62,901 nucleotides of DNA from the NCBI GenBank assembly GCA_002304935.1, contig DBPS01000051.1:25861-88761 (forward strand), read 5' to 3'. The position numbers were made by a program, and so were the translations under genes. Origin of the DNA: Candidatus Humimicrobium oleiphilum (GTDB lineage: Bacteria; Actinomycetota; Humimicrobiia; Humimicrobiales; Humimicrobiaceae). Below, one piece after another: positions 11,566 through 36,628 of the stretch. Position 1 is the first letter of the stretch. The number at the start of each line of letters is the position of its first letter. Under the pieces are notes generated by a model. It was not told the DNA's origin and did not search any database. It saw nothing but the letters and a program-made list of their open reading frames with translations.

Positions 11566-13032
11566 TTATGGCTGAATCATAGATTTAAAAAGATCATTAT
11601 AAATCCCTGCAGAATAATCCCATGAATAATCACATATCATTGCATTATATATTATTTTATTCCATATCTGGCTATCTTTAAAAAACAATAATGCTTTTTT
11701 AATACATTTATAAAAGCTTTGCCAGTCATAATCATTAAATAAAAATCCCTGGCCGCCTGTTCCGGCATCTTTTTCTGACCGGACGTCAATAATTGTATCA
11801 GCAAGACCTCCCGTTTTTCTTGCGACTGGAATTGTTCCATATTTCAGGCTTATAAGCTGTCCCAGACCGCAGGGCTCATATTTTGAAGGCATAAGAAAGA
11901 TATCTGCCCCTGCATAGATCTCTCTAGCCAGCCTGTCTGAAAAAGTCAGATTTAAACTTATTTTATCATTATAGATCTTTTGGACATTTTTTAAGAGGTT
12001 CATATATTTATCATCGCCAGTCCCGAGTATTATGACATATATCTGTTCTTTTAATATCTCTTCCAGTGTTTTTACCAGGATATCAAAACCTTTTTGTTCA
12101 GATAATCTTGAAACAACTCCCAGAACAGGCCTGTTGTAATCAGGTTCTTTAAAAGTTTTATTAAGTAATTCTTTTTTGCATTGTTCTTTACCTGAAAAAT
12201 TGCCGGGACTATAGTTTTCTGCAATTTCTCTGTCCTTTTCAGGATCCCATAATTCATAATCTATGCCGTTTATTATTCCGGATAGTTTTGCTTTCCGCAC
12301 ATTTAATATTCCTTCAAGCCCGTATCCGAATTCAGGAGTAAGTATTTCTTTTGCATAGGTCGGGCTTACTGTGGTTATCTGATCCGAGTATACTATTCCA
12401 CCTTTCATGCAATTGATTTTTCCATAAAATTCAAGCCCGTCCATATTAAAATATCTTTTATCGATATCGAGAATATCCATTGTCTCTGGCCCGAAAATAC
12501 CCTGATATGCGATATTGTGAATAGTAAAAACTGTTTTTGTATCTTTAAAATAGCTGTTTTCATTTAAAGTTTTTTTAATTAAAAGAAAGAGAGCGCATAA
12601 TCCTACATGGTAATCATGCAAATGAAGAATGTCAGGCCTGAAGTTTATTGTTTCAAGAAGCTCGAATATCGATTTGGAAAAAAAACCGAACCTTAAATTA
12701 TTATCTCCATAATCGCCATAAGAAGTTCCATAAAGGTTTTCCCTGCCGAAATAAAAAGGGTTTCTTATGAGGTAATAATCTACCCCTTTGTTGCTTATTT
12801 TAAAAATATCAAAAAAATCTTCTTTACTTTCGTTAATTTTTACTTTTATATTTTCGGCTATCTTTATAATATTTTTGAAATTCAAAAAAATATCCTCATA
12901 CCCGGGCATTATTACAATCGGTTCATTAGCTATTTTTTTCAATGCATGGGGGAGTGACCCTGCTACGTCTGCAAGCCCGCCTGTCTTTGCAAATGGAACA
13001 GCCTCAGTGGAGCATATGGCAAGTCTTAACAT
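11566..13032 (-). CDS. glgA: Glycogen synthase (GT5); ORF track start 13071, ATG 13032 preferred
   Basis: PFAKTGGLADV, HLHDYH, FTIHNIAYQG, SRLSEQKG, PSKYEPCGLGQ, TGGLADT. Confidence 0.95.
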   Translation of the reverse strand: MLRLAICSTEAVPFAKTGGLADVAGSLPHALKKIANEPIVIMPGYEDIFLNFKNIIKIAENIKVKINESKEDFFDIFKISNKGVDYYLIRNPFYFGRENLYGTSYGDYGDNNLRFGFFSKSIFELLETINFRPDILHLHDYHVGLCALFLLIKKTLNENSYFKDTKTVFTIHNIAYQGIFGPETMDILDIDKRYFNMDGLEFYGKINCMKGGIVYSDQITTVSPTYAKEILTPEFGYGLEGILNVRKAKLSGIINGIDYELWDPEKDREIAENYSPGNFSGKEQCKKELLNKTFKEPDYNRPVLGVVSRLSEQKGFDILVKTLEEILKEQIYVIILGTGDDKYMNLLKNVQKIYNDKISLNLTFSDRLAREIYAGADIFLMPSKYEPCGLGQLISLKYGTIPVARKTGGLADTIIDVRSEKDAGTGGQGFLFNDYDWQSFYKCIKKALLFFKDSQIWNKIIYNAMICDYSWDYSAGIYNDLFKSMIQP

Positions 13033-13178
13033 TTTAAGCTCATTTATATGTTTATTATTTAAAGGAATCAATCTTTTTTAATTAATCCCATTGCATATTT
13101 AATATTTATATTATATTAATAATTAAAATGCAAAGTTATAAATTTAATAACTGACAGTTTATTTGTATTAGTGATTTT

Positions 13179-15101
13179 ATGGGCGAAACAGACTCTTATA
13201 AAAATTTCAACCAGTTTACAGAATATGATATTTACCTTTTCAAGAATGGTAATAATTTTAAAATCTATGAAAAAATGGGCGCGCACCAGAGAAAGATCAG
13301 CGGTGAAGAGGGAATATATTTTGCTGTATGGGCGCCGAATGCCAGTGATGTGTGCATTGCCGGTGATTTTAATGGATGGGATGGAAAAAATTGCAGACTT
13401 ATAAATAGAAGAGATGAATCAGGGATATGGGAAACTTTTATTCCAGGCCTGGAAGAAGGTTCTTTATACAAATACAAGATAAAACCAAGGTTTAAAACCG
13501 AATATATTGAGAAAGCTGACCCATTTTCATTTTTTTGCGAGACACCTCCAAAGACTGCGTCTGTAGTAAAAAATATTGAGTTTGACTGGAAAGATAAAGA
13601 ATGGATGGGAAAAAGAGCCGGATACAATAAACTTGATGCTCCCTTTTCGATTTACGAGATCCATCTTGGCTCCTGGAAAAGAGATAGTAATAACAATTTT
13701 CTTAATTACAGGCAGATTGCACAGGAATTGGTACAATACATAATAGATAATGGTTATACTCACGTAGAACTTCTTCCAATCATGGAACATCCTTTTTATG
13801 GTTCATGGGGCTACCAGGTTACAGGATTTTTTGCACCTACTTCCAGATATGGAAATCCCCAGGATTTTATGTATTTTGTTGATTATCTTCACCAGAACAA
13901 TATAGGAGTCATTCTTGACTGGGTCCCTTCTCATTTTCCTGATGACCCTCACGGACTTTACCTTTTTGATGGAACTCATCTTTATGAGCATGCTGATAAA
14001 AAACTGGGATATCATCCGGACTGGAAAAGCCGGATCTTTAATTACGGGAGATATGAAGTCAAACAATTTTTAATAAACAATGCATTGTTCTGGCTTGACA
14101 AATATCATATTGATGGTTTGAGGATAGATGCAGTGGCCTCTATGTTATATCTGGATTATTCAAGAAAAGAAGGAGAGTGGATACCCAATAAATACGGTGG
14201 CAGGGAAAATCTGGAGGCAATCGAGTTTCTAAAACAGCTAAATACTGAAGTATATAAAAATTTTCCTGACGTACAAACAATTGCCGAAGAATCTACAGCC
14301 TGGCCGAAGGTCACAAAACCGGTGCATGCAGGAGGACTTGGATTTGGAATGAAGTGGAACATGGGATGGATGCATGATACCTTAAATTATTTCTCCAGAG
14401 ACCCTGTTTACAGAAAACATCATCAGAATGAACTGAATTTTACTTTCTGGTATGCTTTTAATGAAAACTTTATCCTGCCTCTTTCTCATGACGAAGTCGT
14501 GTATGGGAAAAAATCACTGTTAGAAAAAATGCCAGGAGACCTGTGGAGAAAATTTGCAAATCTCCGTCTTCTGTTAAGCTATATGTTTGCCTATCCCGGC
14601 AAGAAGCTTATGTTCATGGGCTTGGAATTTGCACAGCCAGGCGAATGGCAGCATGAATCAGTACTACAGTGGCATCTTGCCAGCAGGGAAGGACACAGGG
14701 AAATCAATAAGATATTAAGGGATCTGAACGATATTTATAAAAAAGAAAAAGCTTTTTATATGAATGATTTTGATGGCGCCAGCTTTAAATGGGTTGATTT
14801 TAAAGATTATGAAAACAGCATTATTTCATTTTTAAGGATATATAAAAATGAAATTACAATACTGGCATGTTTTAATTTTACTCCTGTTCCCAGATACGAA
14901 TACAGTATAGGGGTTCCGTCCGGTGGAGTCTGGAAAGAATTTTTTAATAGTGACTCAGAAATATACGGGGGAAGCGGGCACGGAAATTTCGGGAAGCTGG
15001 CTGCACAGGCTTCTCCCTGCCATGGGTACAACAATTCGATATCCGTGACACTTCCGCCTCTTGGGGCATTATTTTTTAAAAAAGAAGAAATAAACAAATG
15101 A
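13179..15101 (+). CDS. glgB: 1,4-alpha-glucan branching enzyme (GH13)
   Basis: FAVWAPNA, YEIHLGSW, SWGYQ, LDWVPSHFP, GLRIDAVASMLY, IAEEST, LSHDEVV. Confidence 0.97.
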   Translation: MGETDSYKNFNQFTEYDIYLFKNGNNFKIYEKMGAHQRKISGEEGIYFAVWAPNASDVCIAGDFNGWDGKNCRLINRRDESGIWETFIPGLEEGSLYKYKIKPRFKTEYIEKADPFSFFCETPPKTASVVKNIEFDWKDKEWMGKRAGYNKLDAPFSIYEIHLGSWKRDSNNNFLNYRQIAQELVQYIIDNGYTHVELLPIMEHPFYGSWGYQVTGFFAPTSRYGNPQDFMYFVDYLHQNNIGVILDWVPSHFPDDPHGLYLFDGTHLYEHADKKLGYHPDWKSRIFNYGRYEVKQFLINNALFWLDKYHIDGLRIDAVASMLYLDYSRKEGEWIPNKYGGRENLEAIEFLKQLNTEVYKNFPDVQTIAEESTAWPKVTKPVHAGGLGFGMKWNMGWMHDTLNYFSRDPVYRKHHQNELNFTFWYAFNENFILPLSHDEVVYGKKSLLEKMPGDLWRKFANLRLLLSYMFAYPGKKLMFMGLEFAQPGEWQHESVLQWHLASREGHREINKILRDLNDIYKKEKAFYMNDFDGASFKWVDFKDYENSIISFLRIYKNEITILACFNFTPVPRYEYSIGVPSGGVWKEFFNSDSEIYGGSGHGNFGKLAAQASPCHGYNNSISVTLPPLGALFFKKEEINK

Positions 15102-15133
15102 TTTATTTTGATATTCAGGAAATGGTATAAATT

Positions 15134-17821
15134 ATGGCAGATAAAAAAACAGCAAAAAGATTTGTATGCATACATGGTCATTTTTATCAGCCATACAGGA
15201 AAAATCCCTGGATTGAAGAGATAGATATACAAAAAGATGCTTATCCTTATAAAGACTGGAATGAAAGAATAAATGCTGAATGTTACAGAGCTAATGCATT
15301 TGCCCGGGTTCTTGGGAATGATAATAAACTGGCAGATATCTATAACAATTATTCAAAAATAAGTTTTAACTTCGGGCCAACTCTTCTTGAATGGATAAAA
15401 ACAAATGATTTAACTACCTATGAAAGAATAATCGAAGGTGATTTTCAAAGCAGAAATATTTTTTCAGGACATGGCACAGCTATTGCACAGAATTACAATC
15501 ATCTTATAATGCCTCTTGCCAGCAGGCAGGATAAGATTTTACAGATTTACTGGGCAATATATGATTTTGAGAAAAATTTTAGCAGAAAGCCTGAAGGAAT
15601 GTGGCTGGCCGAAACTGCGGTTGATTATGAGACACTGGAGATTCTGGCTGACTTCGGTATAAAATATACCATTCTTTCTCCTTATCAGGCTTCCAGATAC
15701 AGACAATCCCTAAAAAATCCGGATAAAGATTTATCAGGAGAAAACCAGTATTCAGATAAATGGATCCTGGCAGAGGAAGGAAGCATAGATACAAGAAGGC
15801 CGTATACCTGTGTCCTGCCCTCAGGCAGAGAAATATCTGTTTTTTTCTACGACAGGGAACTTTCAACTGCTCTTTCATTTGGAGATCTTCTGAAAAACGG
15901 GGAAGGATTTGCCCAAAGCATTATTAATGCACCATATTCTGATAAAGACAGAAAAGAGATAATCATAATAGCTTCAGATGGCGAAGCATATGGCCATCAT
16001 AAAAAATTTGGTGACATGGCCCTTGCTTACTGCATAAAGACAATACAGGAAGATTGTGATGTGGCTTTTACGGTATTTGGAGAATATCTGGAATTATTCC
16101 CTCCGGATTTTGAAGTTGAAATCATTGAAAATACTGCCTGGAGCTGTAGTCATTTTTTATCCAGATGGGAAGGAGGCTGTAGCTGCGGGATGCCTGAAAA
16201 TCAGCCAGAGGGAAAATGGAGCCAGGAATGGCGGGTTCATCTGAGGCAGGCAATAAATAAAGCAAGAGCAGAAATTGATAAAATATATCAATCAAATATA
16301 AAAGAATATATAAAAGAAGAAGCTAAAGATGACTTACAGATACTTAAAGATTATATAATTGTAGCAGATAAAAGGAATCCAGAAAATATAAGAATATTTT
16401 TAAATAAATATTCAAATAAGAATATGAGAAATATAACAGAAAGTGCCGGTATTTTTAATCTTATTAAGAATGATTACGCTGCTGATGAGGGCTTGCTGCT
16501 TGCGTTGCTTGAGATGCAGAGGCAGGCTATGCTCATGCAGTCCAGTGATGCCTGGTTTTTCGATGATATTTCAAGGATAGAAGTAATACAGATATTTACC
16601 CATGTGTTAATGGCAATTAAACTTGGCAGTTTTTTTGATCTGAAAAAAGCCAGAAAAATTGAAGAAATATTTATAGATATATTAAAGTCTGCAAAATGCA
16701 ATATCCCTGAAGGAACAAGCGGCTCCGATATTTATTTAAATGAAGCTTATAAAAAAGAATATTCTACAGAAAAAATCGTTGCTGATTTCATTACAGATTT
16801 TCTGGCAGCACATAATTTGAAAGACAATCCTGATTTATACAATAATGATGCAATATTTGATTTTTATAACCATGAATTTGTTCTGACACAGACATTTGAT
16901 TTTGAAGACGAAATGCTTTCAGGACAGTCAGGTGGTCTTTACATAATATCAAAGACAACTTTAAAAAAAGAATTTTGTCTATTTTTCTTCCTGACAGGCA
17001 AAAATACAGATTTGCAAAAGGGCAAACATAATGAAATTTTAAAAATTTTAATAAGAAAAAAAACAGCAGGCAATAAAAATAATTTTAAATATTCGCCTGA
17101 AACAATCTTTTTTAACGAAATAATAAAATATAATTTCAGAGGCAATAATACTGAAGAAGTTTTTTATAAATTTAAAAGAAAACCAGGATTTAAATATTAT
17201 GATTTAAAGGATATAAGTGAAAGAATAAAGATAAGATTTCTTGAAAGATATTCATTAATAAAGATTAATGAACTTTACAGAGGATTAAGCGGTTACAAGC
17301 TTTACGCTGATAGTATAGAGGAAAACATGAAGAAATGGGTCGGTGCATACTTTATGGACGATAATGATGGCTCTATTTTTAATGCAATAAAAAAAATAAG
17401 AGCCTTAATAATTTTGAACAATCATAATATAAATGAAAAAGCGATTGAAGAATTAGAATATCTTGCTGATGCTGAAGATTCAGCCATTCTATCGGAAAAC
17501 AAAAATACAGGATATACAGACTTCAGTTTCTTAAAAGCAAGTGCAGAAAATTTATTAAAGACGATGATGAACAAGTATATAAATGATATTACTGACTTGG
17601 AAATGCTGAAAATAATAATCAGGCTCCTGAAGATTTATGGAAGATTCAAACTGAATATTGATTTTCCCGGATTGCAGGATATTGTTTTTAAAATTAAAAC
17701 TATTTTTGATAATCTTCTACATAATAAAAAAAAGTATCTGAATGAAGAAATTCATAATGGCGTAATATTTTTATTAGATTTTTTTAATATAGAACATTTA
17801 TCCGACAATGAGGCTTTTTAA
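15134..17821 (+). CDS. GH57-family / DUF3536 glycoside hydrolase with long C-terminal extension
   Basis: CIHGHFYQP-R-NPW, YNHLIMPLA, GMWLAETAVD (nucleophile Glu), ASDGEAYGHH, MQSSDAWFFDD. Confidence 0.85.
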   Translation: MADKKTAKRFVCIHGHFYQPYRKNPWIEEIDIQKDAYPYKDWNERINAECYRANAFARVLGNDNKLADIYNNYSKISFNFGPTLLEWIKTNDLTTYERIIEGDFQSRNIFSGHGTAIAQNYNHLIMPLASRQDKILQIYWAIYDFEKNFSRKPEGMWLAETAVDYETLEILADFGIKYTILSPYQASRYRQSLKNPDKDLSGENQYSDKWILAEEGSIDTRRPYTCVLPSGREISVFFYDRELSTALSFGDLLKNGEGFAQSIINAPYSDKDRKEIIIIASDGEAYGHHKKFGDMALAYCIKTIQEDCDVAFTVFGEYLELFPPDFEVEIIENTAWSCSHFLSRWEGGCSCGMPENQPEGKWSQEWRVHLRQAINKARAEIDKIYQSNIKEYIKEEAKDDLQILKDYIIVADKRNPENIRIFLNKYSNKNMRNITESAGIFNLIKNDYAADEGLLLALLEMQRQAMLMQSSDAWFFDDISRIEVIQIFTHVLMAIKLGSFFDLKKARKIEEIFIDILKSAKCNIPEGTSGSDIYLNEAYKKEYSTEKIVADFITDFLAAHNLKDNPDLYNNDAIFDFYNHEFVLTQTFDFEDEMLSGQSGGLYIISKTTLKKEFCLFFFLTGKNTDLQKGKHNEILKILIRKKTAGNKNNFKYSPETIFFNEIIKYNFRGNNTEEVFYKFKRKPGFKYYDLKDISERIKIRFLERYSLIKINELYRGLSGYKLYADSIEENMKKWVGAYFMDDNDGSIFNAIKKIRALIILNNHNINEKAIEELEYLADAEDSAILSENKNTGYTDFSFLKASAENLLKTMMNKYINDITDLEMLKIIIRLLKIYGRFKLNIDFPGLQDIVFKIKTIFDNLLHNKKKYLNEEIHNGVIFLLDFFNIEHLSDNEAF

Positions 17822-19343
17822 TAAAAAAAGCGGGATTTTGCTTCATATAACGTCTCTTCCGTCAGAATATGGTATCGGCGACCTGGGACCTGCTGCATAT
17901 AAATTTGCAAAACTGATAAAAGATTGTGGTCAGAGCTTATGGCAGATTCTTCCTACTGCCCCTACCAGCAGATTCAAGCAATATTCTCCTTATGCTTCTA
18001 TTTCTGCCTTTGCCGGCAATACAATGCTAATAAGTCCTTTTTTTTTATACGAAGAAGGATTTTTAAAAAGAAATGAGTTTTTATCATATACGGAAAAATT
18101 TAATAATAAAAGCGGCAGAAGCTATGTTGATTTTGCATACGTAATAAGAAATAAAAAAAATCTTTTAAATAAAGTGTTTTCTAATTTTTATACTGATTAT
18201 CACAGGAATTTTCCTGATTTCCAGGAATTTTGTTTAAGGCATAATGATAACTGGCTTGATTCATTTTCTTTTTTTAATGTCCTTAAAAATAAATATAAGA
18301 ATATTTCCTGGAGTGCATGGCCTGAGGAATTAAAAGAAGGAATAACAGGAAAAGATTTTTACGATAATGAAATAAAGATGGAGATTTTTAGAGAAAAATT
18401 TTTTCAGTTTGTTTTTTTCAGACAATGGTTCAGGTTAAAGAATTATTGCAATAGCATAGGTGTGAGAATTATAGGTGATATACCTATTTATATGGATTAT
18501 GAAAGCAGTGATGTGTGGTCTAATCAGAATATTTTTAAACTTGATAAAAATAAAAGACCGGAATTTGTTTCAGGAGTACCGCCGGATTACTACAGTTCTA
18601 CCGGACAGCTCTGGAACAATCCTGTCTATAACTGGAAAAATTTAAAAAAACAAAACTACAAGTGGTGGTTAAAGAGAATAATGCACAACCTGGAGCTTTT
18701 CGATTTCATTAGGCTGGATCATTTCAGGGGTTTTATCGAATACTGGGAAGTAGGAGCTAATGAGAAAACTGCAAAAAACGGAAATTGGCAAAAAGCAGAA
18801 CCGCAGGAATTTTTCAATGTTTTAAGAAAAGAGATTTATAAAAAATTTAATGATATTCCTCTTATTGCTGAAGACCTTGGTTTTATTACGCCTGATGTGA
18901 TAAAAGTAATTGAAAAGAACAAGTTTCCAGGCATAAGAGTCATTTTATTTGCTTTTGGAAAAGATTTTCCAAATAATATACATTTGCCTGAAAACTATAA
19001 TGATAGATGCGTGGCATATACCGGGACTCATGACAATAACACAGTTTACGGATTTCTTCTCAAAGAAGCAGGCAAGCTTGAAAAGGAAAACATAACAAGA
19101 TATCTCGGATTAAAATCAGGATTAAGCAAAATAAGCATGGAATTTATGAAGAGGATATCAGCATCCAGAGCAGATCTAACAATTTTTCCCGTTCAGGATA
19201 TACTGAATCTTGATTATAGGGCAAGAATGAATAAACCTTCCACCAAAAGAAATAACTGGAAGTGGAAGATGAATTTTTCAGATATGAGCAATAAAAGATT
19301 TGAGGAGCTCGGTCAAATAACTGAAAAAAATAAAAGAAATTAA
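17808..19343 (+). CDS. malQ: 4-alpha-glucanotransferase (amylomaltase, GH77)
   Basis: SGILLHITSLP, WQILP, GDIPIY, GVPPDYYS-TGQLWNNP, RLDHFRGF, IAEDLG, YTGTHDN. Confidence 0.95.
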   Translation: MRLFNKKSGILLHITSLPSEYGIGDLGPAAYKFAKLIKDCGQSLWQILPTAPTSRFKQYSPYASISAFAGNTMLISPFFLYEEGFLKRNEFLSYTEKFNNKSGRSYVDFAYVIRNKKNLLNKVFSNFYTDYHRNFPDFQEFCLRHNDNWLDSFSFFNVLKNKYKNISWSAWPEELKEGITGKDFYDNEIKMEIFREKFFQFVFFRQWFRLKNYCNSIGVRIIGDIPIYMDYESSDVWSNQNIFKLDKNKRPEFVSGVPPDYYSSTGQLWNNPVYNWKNLKKQNYKWWLKRIMHNLELFDFIRLDHFRGFIEYWEVGANEKTAKNGNWQKAEPQEFFNVLRKEIYKKFNDIPLIAEDLGFITPDVIKVIEKNKFPGIRVILFAFGKDFPNNIHLPENYNDRCVAYTGTHDNNTVYGFLLKEAGKLEKENITRYLGLKSGLSKISMEFMKRISASRADLTIFPVQDILNLDYRARMNKPSTKRNNWKWKMNFSDMSNKRFEELGQITEKNKRN

Positions 19344-19578
19344 AAAAAGTTTTATGATTTTAAAAATTTTTATAAAATACATTTATTGGCTCTTAAAAAA
19401 AGTAAAATGTCTTTTCTGTAAAAATGTAACCGGGGAAAAGATTTTTTTTCAAATATTAAAAATAAATATTATTTTTGATTTAAATCTGGTTTTAATGTTT
19501 ACTAAGTAATAATTATTATTTTATAATAAGCCAATAAGTACGAAATTTTAATAATTTTTTTATTTTGGTGAATTTAAA

Positions 19579-20844
19579 ATGCGGATAGAAGTGGTGGCAT
19601 TTGTTTTAAGTGGCGGGAAAGGCGAGAGGCTTTTGCCTCTGACAAAAGACAGGGTTAAACCTGCCATGCCTTTTGGTGGAAGTTACAGGGTAATAGACTT
19701 TGTCTTAAGTAATCTTATTCATTCCAGAATAAGAAAAATATATATTCTTACGCAGTACGAACCACGTTCTCTGGAAAAACATATTTTTGAAGGATGGACT
19801 CCTATTTTCGGTATAGGCCGTTATAGCTTTATAAGAATGCTTCCTCCGAAGCAGGGCTCAGACAGTGGCTGGTATAATGGAACAGCAGATGCAGTTAATC
19901 AGAACAAAAGTTATGCATGGGAAAATAAACCGGATATTATAGACATCTTTAGTGCAGATCATATCTATATTATGGATATTTCGATTATGAACGATTTCCA
20001 CTATGACAAGAACGCCGATCTTACGATTTCCGCACTTCCCGTGAAATGTGAAACTGCTTCAAAAAAGTACGGCGTACTGGTAGTAAATGATGACTGGGAA
20101 CTTATCGGTTTTGAGGAAAAGCCTGAAAATCCTACTCCCATGCCGGGTTCAAATGACTATTGCCTTGCATCAATGGGAAACTATGCTTTTAATCCTCAGG
20201 TTCTCATAGAAGAACTGGTTATTGACCAGCATAAAGAAACACAAAGAGATAAGAGCATAATATTGCAGAATCCTGACAGATATTCTTCACATGATTTCGG
20301 TTTTGATGTTATTCCGGCAATGCTTAAGAGAGGAAGAAAAATATATGTATACAACTTTAATGAAAATTATATCATAAGTACTAATAAGCATGAAAAATCT
20401 TATTGGAGGGATATCGGTGATCTTGATGAGTTTTATCAGGCAAATATGGACTTGCTTAAAGATGAAAAAGATGTCAATCTTCATAATGAAAGATGGGAGA
20501 TATTCACGAGGTCGTCATGCCTGAGATCGCCATCAATAAACGGAAGGTCCATTATTTCAAAATCCATCATTTCCAATGGATGTGAAATTAATAAATCTGA
20601 AATCGACAACTCTATTCTGTCATATCATATTGAAGTTTCAGAAAATACAAAGATCACAGGGTCATTTTTAATGGGTTATAATCATATAGGCAAAAATGTG
20701 AAAATCAAAAATGCAATAATTGATACATTTACTTATGTTCCTGACAATACCAGGGTCGGTTATGACATTGAAGAAGACCTTAAAAGAAAACTTACCATAT
20801 CAAACAATGGTGTTGTAATAGTCCCGAGAAGATTTAAATTCTAA
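19579..20844 (+). CDS. glgC: Glucose-1-phosphate adenylyltransferase (ADP-glucose pyrophosphorylase)
   Basis: GGKGERLLPLT--R-KPA-PFGG-YR-IDF-LSN, GTADAV, SADHIY, FEEKP, ASMGNY, DFGFDVIP, YWRDIG; C-terminal beta-helix. Confidence 0.93.
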   Translation: MRIEVVAFVLSGGKGERLLPLTKDRVKPAMPFGGSYRVIDFVLSNLIHSRIRKIYILTQYEPRSLEKHIFEGWTPIFGIGRYSFIRMLPPKQGSDSGWYNGTADAVNQNKSYAWENKPDIIDIFSADHIYIMDISIMNDFHYDKNADLTISALPVKCETASKKYGVLVVNDDWELIGFEEKPENPTPMPGSNDYCLASMGNYAFNPQVLIEELVIDQHKETQRDKSIILQNPDRYSSHDFGFDVIPAMLKRGRKIYVYNFNENYIISTNKHEKSYWRDIGDLDEFYQANMDLLKDEKDVNLHNERWEIFTRSSCLRSPSINGRSIISKSIISNGCEINKSEIDNSILSYHIEVSENTKITGSFLMGYNHIGKNVKIKNAIIDTFTYVPDNTRVGYDIEEDLKRKLTISNNGVVIVPRRFKF

Positions 20845-20979: not shown

Positions 20980-22137
20980 TTGAAGACAGACAAACCGGAC
21001 GATGAAAATAAGACGATAAATAAATCTATTGTAAAATTTGCCTCAGTCGAGTTTGACAAAATAGATCCTGATGCAACCCTGCCTGCAAAATTTGACAGAC
21101 TTTTAAAGACCACTGATTTGAAAAAAGTTGTCGGAGATAAAGTGGTGGCATTAAAGATGCACATGGGCAGAGGAATCGGTTACACAACAATACACCCTCT
21201 TTTCATAAAAATACTGATCAGGCATATAAAAGAAGCAGGTGGCAGGGTTTTTATAACAGATGTAGGCCCCAGTTTCAGCAGCGGCGGTTTTAACGACCTT
21301 ACTTCTAGAGACAGAGGATATTCTGAAGATGTTCTGGGAGCTCCGATATATCCGGTATCGGGAGTATTTGATAAATATTATTATTCAAAAAAAGTAGATT
21401 TTAAAAATCTTGATGAGATACAGATCGCCGGCCACATACATGATGCTGAAGTCATGATAGATCTCTCCCATTTTAAAGGTCACGGAATAAGCAGCTACGG
21501 AGGTGCCTTAAAGAATATCGCAATGGGCTGTGTGACTGCAAAAACAAGAGGAGACATGCACAGTCTTCATTCTGGCGGCAGCGGTATTGTATGGGATGAG
21601 AATCTTTGTGACCATTGCAATAAATGCGTGGATGAATGCAGATATAAAGCAAACTTTTTCAATGATGAAAACAAATACGAAGTAATTATTCATGACTGCA
21701 CTTATTGCCAGCATTGCATCGAAATTTGTCCGAATTCTGCACTTTCCCTTGAATCCAGAAATTATCTTGATTTCCAGGAAGGAATGGTGATTGCAACAGA
21801 AGAAGTTCTGAAAACTTTCAATCCGGGAAATGTTTACTATATAAATATTCTTTTAAGCATAACTTTTATATGTGACTGCTGGGGAATGTCGGCATCTTCT
21901 GTTGTCCCTGACATAGGTATCCTTGCATCAGATGACATTGTCGCAATTGAAAAAGCTTCACTTGATCTTATAACTCCGGAAAACTTTAATCCCAAATCTC
22001 TGCCAAAAGACAAGGCTCTCAGGGAAGGAAGGCATCTTTTTGAACAGATTTGGGGAAAAGATCCTTATACACAGGTAGAAATAGCTGCAAGGCGCGGTCT
22101 CGGCAAGCCTGATTATATTATTGAAGAAATTAAATAA
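20980..22137 (+). CDS. DUF362 Fe-S protein with internal 2x[4Fe-4S] domain
   Basis: VALKMHMG, SHFKGH, GGALKNIAMGC, CDHCNKCVDEC / CTYCQHCIEICP, CDCWG, DIGILAS-DIVAI; TTG start with AGAGGA RBS. Confidence 0.82.
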   Translation: MKTDKPDDENKTINKSIVKFASVEFDKIDPDATLPAKFDRLLKTTDLKKVVGDKVVALKMHMGRGIGYTTIHPLFIKILIRHIKEAGGRVFITDVGPSFSSGGFNDLTSRDRGYSEDVLGAPIYPVSGVFDKYYYSKKVDFKNLDEIQIAGHIHDAEVMIDLSHFKGHGISSYGGALKNIAMGCVTAKTRGDMHSLHSGGSGIVWDENLCDHCNKCVDECRYKANFFNDENKYEVIIHDCTYCQHCIEICPNSALSLESRNYLDFQEGMVIATEEVLKTFNPGNVYYINILLSITFICDCWGMSASSVVPDIGILASDDIVAIEKASLDLITPENFNPKSLPKDKALREGRHLFEQIWGKDPYTQVEIAARRGLGKPDYIIEEIK

Positions 22138-30070: not shown

Positions 30071-30913
30071 ATGGAAACTGTTGTAACAGGAAGAAATTGT
30101 GAGGTTAGATTCGGGCAGGAGCTTCCGACTGTTTTTATTGCAGAAAGGATAAATCCTACAGGAAGAAAATCCCTGGCTGAAGAGCTGAAGCTGGGAAAAC
30201 TTGATATAGTAGAAAGAGATGCAATCGAACAGACCAATGCCGGGGCTCATATTATTGATGTAAATGTAGGAGCAGTAGGAGTAGATGAAGTGGACATGCT
30301 TCCAAAAGCAGTAAAAAAGGTAATGGAAGTTACTGACAGACCTATTTGTATTGATTCAGCAAATCATAAAGCTCTCAAAGCAGCATTGAATGTCTGCCCT
30401 TATAAAGTACTGATAAATTCTGTAAATGGTGAAGAAGAGTCTTTGGAGTATATGCTCCCGATAGTAAAAGAAAGCAGTTCTGCAGTTATTTGCCTGACAA
30501 TGGATAACAAAGGTATCCCAAATGATCCTGGTGAAAGGCTTGAGATAGCAAAAAGAATTGTGAAACGTGCGGAATCCCTGGGCATAAAAAGGGAAGATCT
30601 TGTTTTTGATCCGCTTGTTATGGGCGCTGCTACTGATGGCAATGCAGGAAGAATCTGTCTTGACAGTATGAGATTGATTGTGAAGGAATTCGGTGTCTCG
30701 ACTACTGGCGGATTTTCAAATATAAGTTTCGGTATGCCTGACAGAGAGTTTCTGAATGTTAATTTTATTATTATGGGAATTATGGCAGGATTATGCGCTC
30801 CCATAACTGATGTACTTATGAAAAGCCTTGCCCCTGCAGTAAAAGCAGCTGATTTTCTTGCCGGAAGAGATGCTTATGGAATGAATTATATATCCATGTA
30901 TAGAAAAAAATAG
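30071..30913 (+). CDS. Stand-alone pterin-binding methyltransferase (MetH CH3-THF-binding domain / AcsE-like methyl-THF:corrinoid methyltransferase)
   Basis: AERINPTGRK, GAHIIDVN, PICIDS, INSVNGE, FDPLV, GFSNISFGMP-R; strong AGGAGG RBS. Confidence 0.85.
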   Translation: METVVTGRNCEVRFGQELPTVFIAERINPTGRKSLAEELKLGKLDIVERDAIEQTNAGAHIIDVNVGAVGVDEVDMLPKAVKKVMEVTDRPICIDSANHKALKAALNVCPYKVLINSVNGEEESLEYMLPIVKESSSAVICLTMDNKGIPNDPGERLEIAKRIVKRAESLGIKREDLVFDPLVMGAATDGNAGRICLDSMRLIVKEFGVSTTGGFSNISFGMPDREFLNVNFIIMGIMAGLCAPITDVLMKSLAPAVKAADFLAGRDAYGMNYISMYRKK

Positions 30914-32248: not shown

Positions 32249-32286
32249 ATTTATAAGGCACAATATTTTTATTGTGCCTTATAAAT
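32249..32286. repeat. Perfect 17-bp inverted repeat with 4-nt loop (terminator or operator)
   Basis: ATTTATAAGGCACAATA-TTTT-TATTGTGCCTTATAAAT, read directly; 11 nt before ATG 32298. Confidence 0.85.
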
Positions 32287-32297
32287 ATTTGATTTTT

Positions 32298-33479
32298 ATG
32301 AAAGAAATATTTGACGTAATCATTAGCGGCTCAGGTCCTTCCGGAAGCATTCTGGGATATCTTCTTTCCAGCAGCGGATACAGAGTACTGATTATCGATA
32401 AAGAAAAATTCCCAAGATATAAAGTATGTGCCGGGGGAATTCAGATTAAAGCTGCCGGGCTGATTCCTTTTAACATTGATTCCCAGATACATAATGTTAT
32501 TAAAAAAATCCATTTTCAGAGAAAAGCAAAAGATGATTTTTTGGGCGAATATGACCAGCCACTCATGTACACTCTTGACAGGCCGGACTTTGATGATTAT
32601 CTTGTAAAAAAAGCTGCAGGAGCAGGCTGTGTGGTTAAAACTGGTGAGAAAGTACAGGAAGTATCGGCTGGTAATAACAATGTGGTCGTTTTTACAGGAA
32701 AAGACAAATATTATGGAAAAATATTTTCCGGCTCTGATGGAGCTAATGGTTTTTCAATAAAAAAATATAATAATTATCGCAAAATAAGAAAAATAATCGG
32801 ATATGAAATTGAAATACCGGTATCAGGATACTGTAAAAAGCCATATCCTGAAAGTAAAAATATCAGGGATCAGGAAAGGAATTTTGCCTTATTTGATAAA
32901 GATACTGTTGTAATTGATTTTGGAGGAGTGAAATTCGGGTATTTATGGCTTTTCCCAAAAAATAAAAGGATTTCTGCAGGAATGGGAGGTTTTCCGGAAA
33001 AATCAAAAGAAATAAAAAAATATCTCAGCTTTTTTATAAGAAATACAGATTTTTTTGATATTAATGAAAAACAGGAACTGCCTCTTCATGCACATTTTAT
33101 TCCGGTAAGAAAAAAGAATGATTTTATATCTTCGTACAGGATACTGGTTACCGGAGATGCCGCAGGTTTGGGGGATGGCTTCACAGGTGAAGGATTGCAT
33201 AATGCAATCCTAAGTTCACATATTGCATTTTCCAGCATAAAAGAAGCTTTAAAAAATTCTTCTTTCGAATTTCATGACTACAGCGAAATGATCAGTCGCG
33301 AAATAATAAAAAATATTGAATATTCAGTTATCATTTCAAAAATATTTTTTTCATCCCAGTATTTTTACTATAAACTGATTAAAAAGAATGAAAAACTTTT
33401 TAAATCATGTTGTAAAATACTAAGAGGAGAAAAAACTTATCTGGATGTTGTAAATAAATTAAAACTAATTAGAATTTGA
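32298..33479 (+). CDS. Geranylgeranyl reductase family FAD-dependent oxidoreductase; ATG 32298 preferred
   Basis: GSGPSGS, FPRYKVCAGG, RPDFDDYL, GSDGANG, GYLWLFPK, GDAAG--DGFTGEG. Confidence 0.85.
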   Translation: MKEIFDVIISGSGPSGSILGYLLSSSGYRVLIIDKEKFPRYKVCAGGIQIKAAGLIPFNIDSQIHNVIKKIHFQRKAKDDFLGEYDQPLMYTLDRPDFDDYLVKKAAGAGCVVKTGEKVQEVSAGNNNVVVFTGKDKYYGKIFSGSDGANGFSIKKYNNYRKIRKIIGYEIEIPVSGYCKKPYPESKNIRDQERNFALFDKDTVVIDFGGVKFGYLWLFPKNKRISAGMGGFPEKSKEIKKYLSFFIRNTDFFDINEKQELPLHAHFIPVRKKNDFISSYRILVTGDAAGLGDGFTGEGLHNAILSSHIAFSSIKEALKNSSFEFHDYSEMISREIIKNIEYSVIISKIFFSSQYFYYKLIKKNEKLFKSCCKILRGEKTYLDVVNKLKLIRI

Positions 33480-33511: not shown

Positions 33512-34315
33512 ATGGTTATTGATAATAAAAAACCTGTCACGATTGTTCAGATTTCAGATATCCATGTTGGCGAGGTTCATTTTGTTCCCAGCCTGTTAAC
33601 CAGAGCTATAGATGAAATAAATGAGCTTGATCCGGATATAGTGATAATAACAGGAGATCTAACTGCAAATGGTTTCAGGAGAGAATACGATACTGTTAAA
33701 AATTACCTGGCTCCGATTAAATGTAATAATCTGATAGTTCAGCCTGGCAATCATGATTCAAGAAATGTGGGATATATCCATTTTGAGGATATCTATGGTG
33801 AACGTTATATTACACATAATAATGAAAAAGTAAAAATAGTAGCTGCTGATTCAACGGAACCAGATCTTGATAACGGGCAGATAGGAAGAGAATATTACAA
33901 GTGGATAAAGAATGAATTTGCAAATACAGATGATAATGTATTTAAGATTTTTACGATGCACCATCATCTTCTTCCTGTTCCGAGTACCGGAAGGGAAAGG
34001 AATGTGGTAAATGATGCAGGGGATGTACTGGAAGTTCTTGTTGATTCAAAAGTAGATATGGTTTTATGCGGCCATAAACATGTTCCCTACATATGGAGAA
34101 TAGAAGATATACTTATGATAACCACAGGGACAGTTTCCTGTCTCAGGTTAAGGGGTAAGATAGAGCCTAATTATAATATAATGTATATCTATGATGACAG
34201 GATAGATATTTTCAGGAGATTTCCGTTTGACAAGATAGAAAAGATCGAAGGAATAAAAAGATCTACTGTTAAGGAAAGGCTTAATGCTAAATTTATTAAA
34301 GAAGCAAAGTTGTAA
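33512..34315 (+). CDS. Calcineurin-like metallophosphoesterase (CpdA/Icc-like)
   Basis: All five metal motifs: SDIH, TGDL, PGNHD, MHHH, GHKH; AAGGGG RBS. Confidence 0.9.
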   Translation: MVIDNKKPVTIVQISDIHVGEVHFVPSLLTRAIDEINELDPDIVIITGDLTANGFRREYDTVKNYLAPIKCNNLIVQPGNHDSRNVGYIHFEDIYGERYITHNNEKVKIVAADSTEPDLDNGQIGREYYKWIKNEFANTDDNVFKIFTMHHHLLPVPSTGRERNVVNDAGDVLEVLVDSKVDMVLCGHKHVPYIWRIEDILMITTGTVSCLRLRGKIEPNYNIMYIYDDRIDIFRRFPFDKIEKIEGIKRSTVKERLNAKFIKEAKL

Positions 34316-35648
34316 AAAGTTCGAAAGAATGGTTGCTCTTGTTGATGGAGAACATTACCCCCAGGTTACAAATGATGCAATCAGAAAATTAAAAAAAGAA
34401 TTTGACGGAACAATTGCAGGAATTATTTTCCTGGGAGGTACCGAGAAGATATCATCAGGAAAATTTTCTGATTTTTTTGATTATGATGTTTTTGTAATAA
34501 AAGATATTTTAAAAGATTTTGTAGCTGCATTGGAAAAATTTAAGCCTGATATTGTGTTTGATTTAAGCGACCAGCCAGTAGTCAACCATGACATAAGAAT
34601 GAAAATCGCCTCTTTTTGCTTTTATAAAAATGTCAGTTATATGGGAACAGATTTCTTTTTTGAAAACCCTGCAGGCCATATCAAACTGGATATTCCTTCC
34701 ATATCAGTTATAGGCACAGGAAAAAGAATCGGAAAAACTGCCATAAGTGCTTTTATTGCCCAGACCTACAAGAAAAAAGGAATAGATGTAATAGTTGTTG
34801 CCATGGGCAGGGGAGGCCCGCAAAAGCCCCAGCTTCTCAAAGGAAGCGAAATGGAAATAACTCCCCGGTTTTTGCTTTCATTAAACAGGAAAGGACTTCA
34901 TGCAAGCTCTGATTATATTGAAGACGCACTGATGAGTAAAATCACAACAGTAGGGTGCAGAAGGTGCGGAGGTGGTTTCGGGGGTAAAGTTTTTTTATCA
35001 AATGTTGCTGAAGGTGCCAGACTGGCAGCTTCATTAAAGCCGGATCTGATAATCATGGAAGGCAGCGGGGCCTCTCTTCCGGATGTTGATACAGACAGCT
35101 ACATATGTGTTATCGGGGCAAATCAGAAATGGGACGAAATTGTAGGATATCTGGGCATATACAGAATTATGATATCGCAGACTATTGTTCTTACAATGTG
35201 TGAAAAACCTGTCTCAGATTTTAAAAATATTGAAGTGCTTTTAAGCAATATCAGGGATATCAATCCTTCTGCCTCAGTTTTTCTTTCCATATTCAGGCCT
35301 CATCCTCTTGGAGAGCTGAGAGGAAAAAAAGTAGTGGTAGGAATGACTGCCAAAAGCATAATGCAGGAAAAAATTAAAAATTATTTAGAAAAAAAGTATA
35401 AATGCATAATAACGGGTATGACTTTCAGCCTCTCGGACAGGCCCAGACTGTATAATGAAATTAAAAAGTTTGATGATTTTGACGTATTTCTTTCGGAGTT
35501 AAAAGCTGCAGCAGTTGATGTGATAACTGATTATTCTGTAAAACAAAACAAGGAAGTCATATATATGAATAATGTCCCGTCTTTCAGGGGAGGAAATAAA
35601 AAATTCACTGATTATCTTTCAATTTTATTTAATGAAATAATCAGTTAG
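34284..35648 (+). CDS. cpgS: Cyclic 2,3-diphosphoglycerate synthetase
   Basis: ALVDGEHYP, GGTEKI, DLSDQPV, P-loop GTGKRIGKT, VAMGRGGP, HASSDYIEDA, VGCRRCGGG, EGSGAS, FRP-PL, ELKAAAVD; overlaps upstream gene by 32 nt. Confidence 0.88.
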   Translation: MLNLLKKQSCKKFERMVALVDGEHYPQVTNDAIRKLKKEFDGTIAGIIFLGGTEKISSGKFSDFFDYDVFVIKDILKDFVAALEKFKPDIVFDLSDQPVVNHDIRMKIASFCFYKNVSYMGTDFFFENPAGHIKLDIPSISVIGTGKRIGKTAISAFIAQTYKKKGIDVIVVAMGRGGPQKPQLLKGSEMEITPRFLLSLNRKGLHASSDYIEDALMSKITTVGCRRCGGGFGGKVFLSNVAEGARLAASLKPDLIIMEGSGASLPDVDTDSYICVIGANQKWDEIVGYLGIYRIMISQTIVLTMCEKPVSDFKNIEVLLSNIRDINPSASVFLSIFRPHPLGELRGKKVVVGMTAKSIMQEKIKNYLEKKYKCIITGMTFSLSDRPRLYNEIKKFDDFDVFLSELKAAAVDVITDYSVKQNKEVIYMNNVPSFRGGNKKFTDYLSILFNEIIS

Positions 35649-35695
35649 TTTTTTAATATATTTAAAATTATTATCAAAAAAATAAATTAAATTAA

Positions 35696-36628
35696 ATGGA
35701 CAAAGAAGTAAATACAAAAGAGATGATAGTAATTTCTGATAAAAAAAAGGGAGGACTTCCTTTTTCCAAAGGTATACTTGCGAATTCAATAATTGTTACC
35801 GGCCTGGACATGCTGACATCACACAGGATAGCTTTTGATGTCCAGGACTATCTTGTTAAAAATAAATTAATGTCAATTTCACTTGAAGAGCTAAGAGCTC
35901 TTGTTTTCAGATTTATAAAGGATGAAGTAAATATTGAATATGCAGAAAAATATCTTTTGTGGCAGTCTGTAGGAAAGCTTAGAAGACCTATAATAATACT
36001 AATAGGAGGTTCTACCGGAGCTGGCAAATCGACCATTTCAACAATTATGTCAAACAGGCTTAATATATCCAGAGTTGTTTCAACAGATGCAATCAGGGAA
36101 ATCATGAGAACTTCTGTTTCTGACAAACTGATAAAACCGCTGCAGGGTTCTTCATATAATGCATACAAACATCTTGCTCTTCCCCCGACAGGTGTAAATC
36201 CCGTGATACTCGGTTTCAGGGAACAGGTAATGGCGGTTACAGTAGGCATAGAAGCAATAATAAAAAGAAGCGTTGAGGAAAAAATAGATACCATCATTGA
36301 AGGCGCTCATGTAGTTCCGGGATATATAAATATTAAAAACATGGAAAACAAAGCGCTGATAGAACATTTTGTCATAATAGTTGAAGATGAAGAACTGCAC
36401 AGAGAACATTTTGTGAAAAGAACGTTTGAAACCCAGGGCTCAAGACCCATGCAAAGATATCTGAGACATTTAAAAAATATCAGAATGATACAAAATTATA
36501 TCCAGGAACTTGCAAATAAAAATAATGTGAAGATACTTGACAACTATAATCTTGACCATACACTTGCAGAAGCAATGGATTTAATGTTTGAAAGAGTAAA
36601 AAAAGAATTTTCAAGTCACAATTATTAA
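35696..36628 (+). CDS. pgk2: 2-phosphoglycerate kinase (archaeal type, N-terminal ATP-cone)
   Basis: ATP-cone PFSKGILANS; P-loop LIGGSTGAGKST; STDAIREIMR; IIEGAHVVPG; RHLKNIR-IQ-Y. Confidence 0.87.
   Translation: MDKEVNTKEMIVISDKKKGGLPFSKGILANSIIVTGLDMLTSHRIAFDVQDYLVKNKLMSISLEELRALVFRFIKDEVNIEYAEKYLLWQSVGKLRRPIIILIGGSTGAGKSTISTIMSNRLNISRVVSTDAIREIMRTSVSDKLIKPLQGSSYNAYKHLALPPTGVNPVILGFREQVMAVTVGIEAIIKRSVEEKIDTIIEGAHVVPGYINIKNMENKALIEHFVIIVEDEELHREHFVKRTFETQGSRPMQRYLRHLKNIRMIQNYIQELANKNNVKILDNYNLDHTLAEAMDLMFERVKKEFSSHNY

Follow-up and report, generated by a model that had tools for sequence, protein, structure and literature searches.

The window analyzed here, a stretch of 62,901 nt of contig DBPS01000051.1 (positions 25,861 to 88,761, forward strand) from Candidatus Humimicrobium oleiphilum, carries on its plus strand three adjacent genes (33512-36628) that probably form one functional unit, an operon for the metabolism of cyclic 2,3-diphosphoglycerate (cDPG). 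They comprise a metallophosphoesterase gene (33512-34315), the gene of cDPG synthetase, named cDPGS or CpgS (34284-35648), and a gene of the 2-phosphoglycerate kinase (2PGK) family (35696-36628). In all the papers we searched (PMC10690619 and PMC1224877 among them) cDPG has been treated as a solute confined to archaea. For the cDPGS-2PGK pair, synthesis of cDPG is the best-supported function, and we hold this assignment with good confidence, the product being predicted from the sequence. Neither enzyme is out of the ordinary within its known family, and the pair is not new in databases; it has been annotated automatically in many bacterial metagenome-assembled genomes (MAGs), and public pipelines already give many of the relatives the names 'cyclic 2,3-diphosphoglycerate synthetase' and '2-phosphoglycerate kinase'.

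The original prediction was concerned with the two downstream genes. Both open reading frames (ORFs) are present, co-oriented on the plus strand, and all nine motifs quoted for them are found in the translations: DGEHYP, GTGKRIGKT, MGRGGP, HASSDYIEDA, GCRRCGGG and ELKAAAVD in the first, PFSKGIL, GGSTGAGKST and STDAIRE in the second. The extent of the unit had to be revised, as the gene at 33512-34315, physically coupled to the pair, was left out of it; the unit has three genes.

The ribosome-binding site (RBS) of the cDPGS gene, AAGGAAAGG (34271-34279, plus strand), is located within the 3' end of the phosphoesterase gene and, as read from the sequence, ends 4 nt before the cDPGS ATG at 34284. 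This site, together with an N-terminal extension (MLNLLK.../MIDLLK...) that is conserved among cDPGS homologues, supports translation start at 34284. The stop codon of the phosphoesterase gene is situated 32 nt inside the cDPGS gene, i.e. the reading frames overlap by 32 nt; the position of the RBS inside the upstream gene suggests that the phosphoesterase and cDPGS may be translationally coupled. The gap between the cDPGS and 2PGK genes is 47 nt, and a convergent gene starts directly after 2PGK. A promoter and terminator scan detected no terminator-like site between the three genes; it produced no more sites than in shuffled sequence, and we name no promoter. Rfam and tRNA scans of the window gave no match.

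A genome scan, with one genome per species, yielded at least 579 confirmed loci, of which the 80 most similar to the window query (52 bacterial and 28 archaeal) were kept. Against the nearest of these 80 (L001, an Actinomycetota MAG; dS ∼1) the phosphoesterase, cDPGS and 2PGK genes had dN/dS values of 0.02, 0.08 and 0.03, respectively, indicating that strong purifying selection maintains all three genes.

Synthetase and kinase of a predicted cDPG pathway

The 2PGK of Methanothermus fervidus was reportedly described by Lehmacher and Hensel in 1994, and the cDPGS of the same species by Matussek in 1998. By analogy with the characterized archaeal enzymes, 2PGK would convert 2-phosphoglycerate and ATP to 2,3-diphosphoglycerate (2,3-DPG) and ADP, and cDPGS would then convert 2,3-DPG and ATP to cDPG, ADP and Pi. 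In the latter reaction the 3-phosphate would attack the pyrophosphate, with release of Pi and closure of the cyclic phosphoanhydride.

In a phmmer search of the PDB the product of 34284-35648 (454 aa) matched the M. fervidus cDPGS structures 8ORK/8ORU with E=1e-111 and 45% identity (residues 14-433 versus 5-432 of the deposited chain), as well as a third cDPGS entry, 9SXB, with E=1e-103. The entry 9SXB (436 aa) is a recent deposit named cDPGS with a sequence distinct from that of the M. fervidus enzyme. The CpgS-specific N-terminal domain PF27272 (PF27272.1, CpgS_N), for which other structural relatives are not known, is assigned by precomputed annotation to the window protein (P0001) and to all its relatives. 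We observed only sub-threshold matches in Pfam-A, to DUF1611 (19 bits) and CbiA, and no match in NCBIfam; as the copies used had no CpgS model, these results are not evidence against CpgS membership. The counter-case envisaged in the original prediction, that of a DUF1611-like P-loop protein, does not apply, DUF1611 scoring below threshold, and the proposed identity stands: the protein is a full-length CpgS member (HAMAP MF_01908 type) with PF27272 and with all catalytic and ligand residues kept.

According to the structural study of the M. fervidus enzyme (De Rose 2023, 8ORK/8ORU; PMC10690619), 2,3-DPG is contacted by K145 and R146 as well as by E45 and K46 of the partner subunit; T150 and D208 are Mg2+ ligands, while K149 and K406 shield charge; the nucleotide is held by E305, T353 and E404, with P335 also listed. 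The corresponding residues of the window protein are E54, K55, K147, R148, K151 and T152 (M. fervidus E45, K46, K145, R146, K149 and T150) and D210, E307, T355, E405 and K407 (M. fervidus D208, E305, T353, E404 and K406). These ligand columns are invariant in 82 sequences, namely 8ORK, the window protein and those from the 80 loci, 52 of them bacterial and 28 archaeal. At position 335 the deposited M. fervidus chain has F instead of P; F335 is conserved, as are P337 and P339. The Walker A motif GTGKRIGKT is present too. As judged from sequence, both the synthetase and the kinase of the window are intact, and the cDPGS has lost none of the residues with which the M. fervidus enzyme contacts 2,3-DPG, Mg2+ and ADP.

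Both enzymes of the M. fervidus pathway have full-length homologues in the window, and the two synthetases share the Walker A motif, the Mg ligands (T and D), the contacts to 2,3-DPG, adenine and ribose, and the CpgS_N dimerization domain. They differ in a 13-residue N-terminal extension of the window protein, for which cDPG is the predicted product; in the host, that of the window being bacterial and probably either mesophilic or moderately thermophilic; and in gene organization, since the window genes share one putative operon with a metallophosphoesterase, whereas in the Methanobacteriales-type loci that we examined cDPGS stands alone.

The second gene of the pair (35696-36628, plus strand) codes for a protein of 310 aa. 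NCBIfam model PRK04220 is its best family, matched end to end (297 bits, E=1.5e-88, profile positions 4-296 of 306), and leads the runners-up, PRK12338 (153 bits) and mevalonate-3-phosphate 5-kinase (100 bits), by more than 140 bits. That this score is under the curated equivalog cut-off of PRK04220 (343 bits) speaks against the assignment. Still, archaeal 2PGKs encoded next to cDPGS fall below the cut-off as well (317 bits for Methanolliviera, 304 and 301 bits for two Thermoplasmatota), and only one of the eight proteins that we tested passes it, so that the cut-off has no discriminating value in this case. GGSTGAGKST is plainly recognizable as a P-loop; the match to the N-terminal ATP-cone is weak (E=0.005; 17.7 bits versus a cut-off of 25.8). 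The P-loop, the PFSKG motif and ∼30 further positions are invariant across bacterial and archaeal cDPGS-linked kinases. A PDB search with this protein returned no homologue, the best match being dephospho-CoA kinase (E=7e-4).

The 2PGK family (NCBIfam PRK04220 / PRK12337) includes kinases of other roles, e.g. plant LPA1 and mevalonate-3-phosphate 5-kinase. The proposed membership in the family is borne out, and the function of the window protein as a 2PGK is inferred from homology together with linkage: a 2PGK gene adjoins cDPGS in 50 of the 80 genome loci, in both domains (Thermoplasmata, Methanolliviera, Aminicenantes and Asgard archaea included), and in 22 of the 30 metagenome loci having enough flanking sequence. 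Close relatives of the window kinase (P0122, P0126 and P0139) have been named 'zeta toxin family protein' by the NCBI pipeline because of a short match of the Zeta_toxin Pfam model to the P-loop (27 bits); for 2PGK of the window type this name is misleading.

Could the cDPGS homologue have diverged to some other ATP-coupled reaction? A precedent is ArcE, the arginine synthetase of T. kodakarensis (TK2200), which proves that chemistry other than that of cDPGS occurs in the fold family (PMC11032458). ArcE belongs, as a remote relative, to this P-loop fold family, and its reaction is likewise reversible and coupled to ATP/ADP+Pi; on the other hand, its substrate is a different one, its gene is located beside arcB/arcC rather than 2PGK, and its similarity to cDPGS is low, cDPGS having been used as the outgroup (PMC11032458). 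The window protein clearly falls on the cDPGS side: it is 45% identical to an assayed cDPGS, it keeps the equivalents of the DPG-binding residues K145, R146 and E45, its gene has 2PGK as a neighbour, and genes for OTC or carbamate kinase (arcB, arcC) were not seen among the annotated neighbours. The ArcE reading was rejected for the window, and we consider a diverged function very unlikely, even though the Bacillota homologues, which have an ABC importer and an iPGM-like gene as neighbours and no 2PGK, may have diverged in this way.

In these Bacillota loci (L030:325-1656, L031:829-2175 and L035:5041-12815) the cDPGS homologue, with its ligand residues intact, is positioned between a GntR/UTRA regulator and the ABC importer (binding protein, permease and ATPase), a homologue of iPGM-like phosphoglycerate mutase is next, and both 2PGK and the phosphoesterase are missing. 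Such a cluster looks like one for uptake or catabolism, perhaps with imported phosphoglycerates, the reverse reaction or another substrate involved.

The upstream metallophosphoesterase and its linkage to cDPGS

The phosphoesterase gene is tied to cDPGS by recurrent gene order. Counting from the cDPGS side, 46 of the 80 genome loci have it as a neighbour of cDPGS, directly upstream in 44 and downstream in two. It is directly upstream in all 30 Humimicrobiia-like loci; the same order was observed in 14 other, mostly actinobacterial loci, where cDPGS is only 40-47% identical to that of the window. A related phosphoesterase is downstream of cDPGS-2PGK in a locus from Thermoplasmata (L054) and in one from Aminicenantes (L060). 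Among the Humimicrobiia-like loci conservation is higher for the phosphoesterase than for cDPGS (70-97% versus 49-85% identity).

In a reciprocal test metagenome contigs were searched with the phosphoesterase alignment, with cDPGS unused, and loci with at least 800 nt of downstream sequence were considered. We saw cDPGS immediately downstream in 39 of 40 loci where identity to the window phosphoesterase reached 49% or more, compared with 2 of 12 loci where it was below 49%.

In eight high-GC soil loci the phosphoesterase-cDPGS arrangement is kept while 2PGK is not adjacent; these are Rubrobacter-like (L110:6956-10307, L090, L100, L102, L106, L112, L128 and L135). A gene for GlpX-type fructose-1,6-bisphosphatase and rho come next in L110, the one of the eight inspected closely, and in Aquicultor-like loci a transaldolase/FSA gene and rho are found at that place. 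These gluconeogenic neighbours (GlpX, transaldolase/FSA) may be meaningful or a coincidence.

A second form of the linkage was observed in L054, L060 and six metagenome contigs, where cDPGS and 2PGK are followed in the same direction by a gene for a CBS-domain pair and then by one for a tandem phosphoesterase of ∼500 aa. Tandem genes beside cDPGS-2PGK are located at L054:8698-10188, L060:3657-5613, in L081-L086 and at L164:5001-6653; in an Asgard (Promethearchaeota) genome the tandem gene is convergent with cDPGS-2PGK. The tandem protein consists of two phosphoesterase domains, the second of which, on reading the sequences, is apparently degenerate at the metal-binding motifs. The first domain has 34-39% identity to the actinobacterial protein and shares with it the motif P-x-P-x-x-GRER...AGD. 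In a profile search against 1.84 billion representative proteins the tandem proteins were the nearest relatives of the short form. The CBS-domain protein could be a regulator of the tandem phosphoesterase.

The short form itself, as encoded in the window (33512-34315, plus strand), is a calcineurin-like metallophosphoesterase (PF00149) of 267 aa with a Pfam Metallophos match of E=1.3e-18. Five metal-binding motifs are intact and invariant, namely DxH (D16/H18), GD (D49), GNHD (N80/H81), HHH (H150-152) and GHxH (H188/H190), and the subfamily motif P-x-P-x-x-GRER...AGD is present. Invariant basic residues flank the metal ligands, with R84 after GNHD and K189 inside GHKH; R161 and R163, invariant as well, are in the GRER loop after the HHH motif. 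Together R84, K189, R161 and R163 would make a pocket suiting a polyanionic substrate. The metallophosphoesterase superfamily hydrolyzes phosphodiesters and phosphoanhydrides alike.

The AlphaFold model of the phosphoesterase (pLDDT 82) has a fold of the class-III phosphodiesterase-like kind. Its best PDB matches, with identities of 15-20%, were Rv0805 and GpdQ as well as purple acid phosphatases; for the top matches, of Rv0805/GpdQ type, the TM-score was 0.64-0.80. Rv0805, a cyclic nucleotide (cNMP) phosphodiesterase of M. tuberculosis, and GpdQ, a glycerophosphodiesterase of Enterobacter, share with the window protein the binuclear-metal fold and the five motifs. The window protein differs from them in having the P-x-P-x-x-GRER loop, K in GHKH and many invariant arginines, in the low identity just given, and in a genomic context of cDPG genes rather than nucleotide signalling. 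The names given to it in databases are CpdA/Icc; we rejected the CpdA/cAMP phosphodiesterase equivalog, as the scores are far below the cut-offs (47.9 versus 225 bits for PRK11148, 41 versus 400 for SpdA).

The linkage of phosphoesterase and cDPGS is strong but not universal, and several observations weigh against a role of the phosphoesterase in cDPG metabolism. One orthologue (L099) has no nearby cDPGS, and in L165 and L166 the tandem gene with its CBS neighbour occurs without cDPGS within 5 kb. In 25 Methanobacteriales-type loci, which belong to a group that accumulates cDPG, neither the phosphoesterase nor 2PGK was found within 6 kb. In Actinomycetota gene order is partly conserved beyond the three genes as well, with tal or glpX, rho and DUF1385 further downstream, and with such wider synteny part of the linkage could be inherited gene order. 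Besides, the phosphoesterase is no more than 20% identical to any solved enzyme and is automatically annotated as a cAMP phosphodiesterase. There was no phosphoesterase within 6 kb of cDPGS in three Bacillota and three other bacterial loci either.

These facts could be accounted for if the pair worked as annotated and the phosphoesterase were unrelated to it, being a cyclic-nucleotide or other phosphodiesterase in an inherited gene order; the wider synteny, the Methanobacteriales loci, the nearest solved folds (Rv0805, acting on cNMP, and GpdQ) and the database names CpdA/Icc all agree with this. The result of the reciprocal test (39 of 40 loci versus 2 of 12 among distant relatives) is harder to reconcile with it, as are the recurrence of the linkage in unrelated phyla of both domains and in three gene orders, its persistence in the soil loci where the adjacency of 2PGK has been lost, the 32-nt overlap of reading frames in the window, and the mere 15-20% identity to Rv0805 and GpdQ. 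Vertical inheritance explains part of the pattern; it does not explain recurrence across phyla in different gene orders. An unrelated phosphoesterase is a possibility that we doubt, while we would give even chances to the phosphoesterase being, as its gene context suggests, a member of the cDPG pathway.

Two further observations concern these families. In L049 (1036-1323) and 20 other Methanobacteriales-type loci there is a conserved ORF of ∼95-110 aa (MYKDEMIQLHQFLVYVLKYL...) within ∼1 kb of cDPGS. The nearest relative of the phosphoesterase that we found in a cultured bacterium is that of Thermoleophilum album (L162:6001-6843, GCA_900108055.1); with 41% identity and no cDPGS near it, it was rejected as a linked orthologue. 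Its gene lies beside a divergent pstSCAB-phoU phosphate-uptake operon, a context which hints that the wider subfamily handles phosphate economy.

Host, distribution and origin of the genes

That the host is bacterial, as originally predicted, is confirmed by a complete mraZ-to-murC cluster on the same contig. The products of this cluster, located 4 kb downstream (MraZ, RsmH, MurE, MurF, MraY, MurD, FtsW, MurG and MurC), exceed the curated cut-offs of the bacterial models and by far outscore those for archaeal pseudomurein, and a penicillin-binding protein is encoded in the same cell-wall cluster. In the nearest genome locus, L001, cDPGS is 85% and the phosphoesterase 97% identical to the window proteins. 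The gene order from hisC to xseA is common to the window, L001 and L161, which are independent assemblies. Named relatives are Candidatus Humimicrobiaceae, Humimicrobiales and Hydromicrobium. We characterize the host as an uncultured low-GC member of Actinomycetota related to Candidatus Humimicrobiia.

A search with the cDPGS protein identified 7860 relatives among 8000 candidates scored. The bacterial loci among the 80 kept come from Actinomycetota (Humimicrobiia-like, Aquicultor, Thermoleophilia, Rubrobacteraceae, Coriobacteriia and Subteraquimicrobiales), from Bacillota and from Aminicenantes; the archaeal ones come from Methanobacteriales, including gut Methanobrevibacter, from Methanolliviera and from Thermoplasmata. 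The earlier statement that homologues are annotated in a few bacteria was too narrow, given at least 579 species-level genomes that encode a relative, with mostly early-branching Actinomycetota among the bacterial ones.

In a neighbour-joining tree (midpoint-rooted, with no support values) the window cDPGS is placed in a deep Humimicrobiia-like clade. A second group is formed by other Actinomycetota and Bacillota, and a third, mainly archaeal, includes the M. fervidus enzyme and has Aminicenantes placed beside Thermoplasmata. Identity of the window cDPGS to any archaeal protein is 40-45%, which together with the clades argues for long residence in bacteria over recent transfer. Hence, the description of the pair as 'archaeal-type' must not be taken to mean a recent transfer.

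The pathway has been characterized in methanogens only, and one might think of archaeal DNA in the form of a misassembled or chimeric contig, or of a very recent acquisition from a methanogen. Even GC content across the window (0.31-0.40, with no break at the locus), the bacterial cell-wall cluster on the same contig, the recurrence of the hisC-to-xseA order in L001 and L161, and the deep actinobacterial clade with only 40-45% identity to archaeal proteins make this extremely improbable; contamination or recent transfer was rejected on the grounds of GC, the cell-wall cluster and the tree.

The host is probably anaerobic, judging from genes for a flavodiiron protein, Fe-S proteins and a methyl-tetrahydrofolate methyltransferase. 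The fraction of the amino acids IVYWREL is 0.40, which suggests a growth optimum near 40 C by the Zeldovich formula, a rough estimate that is indicative only. According to sample and isolate labels, the relatives seemingly come from sediment and groundwater metagenomes.

Several other genes of the window were noted. Those for DhaL/DhaK (138-1806), the flavodiiron protein with metallo-beta-lactamase and flavodoxin domains (1899-3089, minus strand) and two 4Fe-4S DUF362 proteins (5785-6990 and 20980-22137) would be consistent with an anaerobic lifestyle, DhaL and DhaK being subunits of dihydroxyacetone kinase. At 30071-30913 (plus strand), between hisC and a gene for a MalK-type ABC ATPase, we observed a stand-alone gene like that of methyltetrahydrofolate:corrinoid/iron-sulfur protein methyltransferase (PRK07535, 278 bits, over the cut-off); there are no other Wood-Ljungdahl genes in the window. 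A glycogen cluster at 11566-20844, with a minus-strand GT5 glycogen synthase gene followed by genes for branching enzyme, a GH57/DUF3536 protein, 4-alpha-glucanotransferase and glucose-1-phosphate adenylyltransferase, constitutes a second storage system on the contig. At 32274-33479 (plus strand), 32 nt upstream of the phosphoesterase gene, a flavoprotein of the geranylgeranyl reductase family is encoded (TIGR02032, 177 bits, over the cut-off), and the gene is kept at that place in about a dozen Humimicrobiia-like loci. Such a flavoprotein is unusual in a bacterium and might have a role in isoprenoid or ether lipid metabolism.

A putative cDPG cycle

If the phosphoesterase does belong with the pair, a binuclear metallophosphoesterase encoded upstream and translationally coupled would act on the same pool of metabolites, a step proposed here from linkage and fold. 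The reaction would most likely be hydrolysis of cDPG with water to 2,3-DPG, or dephosphorylation of 2,3-DPG back to phosphoglycerate. The three genes would in this case make up a regulated cycle storing phosphate, energy and anionic solute, not a one-way route to a thermoprotectant. The narrower assignment of the phosphoesterase as a cDPG hydrolase is a tentative one, which we hold somewhat less probable than its alternative.

An activity of this kind, the cDPG hydrolase of Methanothermobacter thermautotrophicus, was reportedly described by van Alebeek in 1994 and by Sastry in 1992. Our literature search found no paper assigning a gene to cDPG hydrolase activity. The window phosphoesterase resembles the M. 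thermautotrophicus enzyme in the role proposed for it, the degradative half of a cDPG cycle; equivalence of the two is a hypothesis, and in the Methanobacteriales loci we saw no orthologue of the window protein at a distance of up to 6 kb from cDPGS. In Methanothermobacter the hydrolase is inhibited by K+ and Pi, and there is a soluble degradation of cDPG to 2,3-DPG (PMC1224877).

Further points count against the three-gene reading as a whole. The Methanothermobacter hydrolase has been reported to be membrane-bound (PMC1224877), while by inspection (no transmembrane prediction was run) the window phosphoesterase has no stretch that is obviously hydrophobic and membrane-spanning. A synthase and a hydrolase that are co-transcribed would need post-translational control. 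The structure paper speaks of cDPG as occurring 'exclusively' in hyperthermophilic methanogens (PMC10690619), and we found in the literature no report of cDPG in any bacterium. The same search turned up no mention of the bacterial clade or of the three-gene operon, and nothing relevant on Humimicrobiia together with cDPG.

In Roberts' review cDPG is proposed to be a rapidly turned-over reserve of carbon and phosphate; in Methanothermobacter it behaves unlike a typical osmolyte, and the mesophile Methanobrevibacter smithii accumulates it (PMC1224877). The host could also keep cDPG at a low, non-accumulating level, as an intermediate, a signal or a gluconeogenic side branch, so that it would be neither osmolyte nor thermoprotectant. 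The rough IVYWREL estimate near 40 C, not indicative of hyperthermophily, the seeming origin of relatives from sediment and groundwater, the limit that a co-transcribed hydrolase would set on accumulation, and the rapid, non-osmolyte-like turnover in Methanothermobacter are in line with this idea. The accumulation in M. smithii, however, implies that low temperature is no bar, and sequence says nothing on concentration; we regard a low level of cDPG as possible though rather unlikely.

Taken as a whole, the proposal of a regulated cycle is that the short phosphoesterase and its CBS-linked tandem relatives are the long-missing cDPG hydrolase, and that cDPG serves as a regulated buffer of phosphate, energy and anions in many mesophilic to moderately thermophilic anaerobes (early-branching Actinomycetota, Aminicenantes, Thermoplasmata and Asgard archaea), not as a curiosity of methanogens that are hyperthermophilic. 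As a joint statement this is speculative, and its parts taken together are more likely wrong than right.

One lesson concerns automatic annotation: caution is in order with names such as 'zeta toxin family protein' for the kinase and 'cAMP phosphodiesterase' for the phosphoesterase. In the literature cDPG counts as an extremolyte of (hyper)thermophilic methanogens only. It is under development as a high-value protein stabilizer, and a functional bacterial pathway, if true, would offer many non-hyperthermophilic enzyme variants for biocatalytic production of cDPG. It would also provide the first candidate gene for cDPG breakdown. Finally, if the pathway is functional in bacteria, cDPG would be read ecologically less as a thermoprotectant and more as a means by which energy-limited anaerobes store phosphate and energy or keep their osmotic balance.

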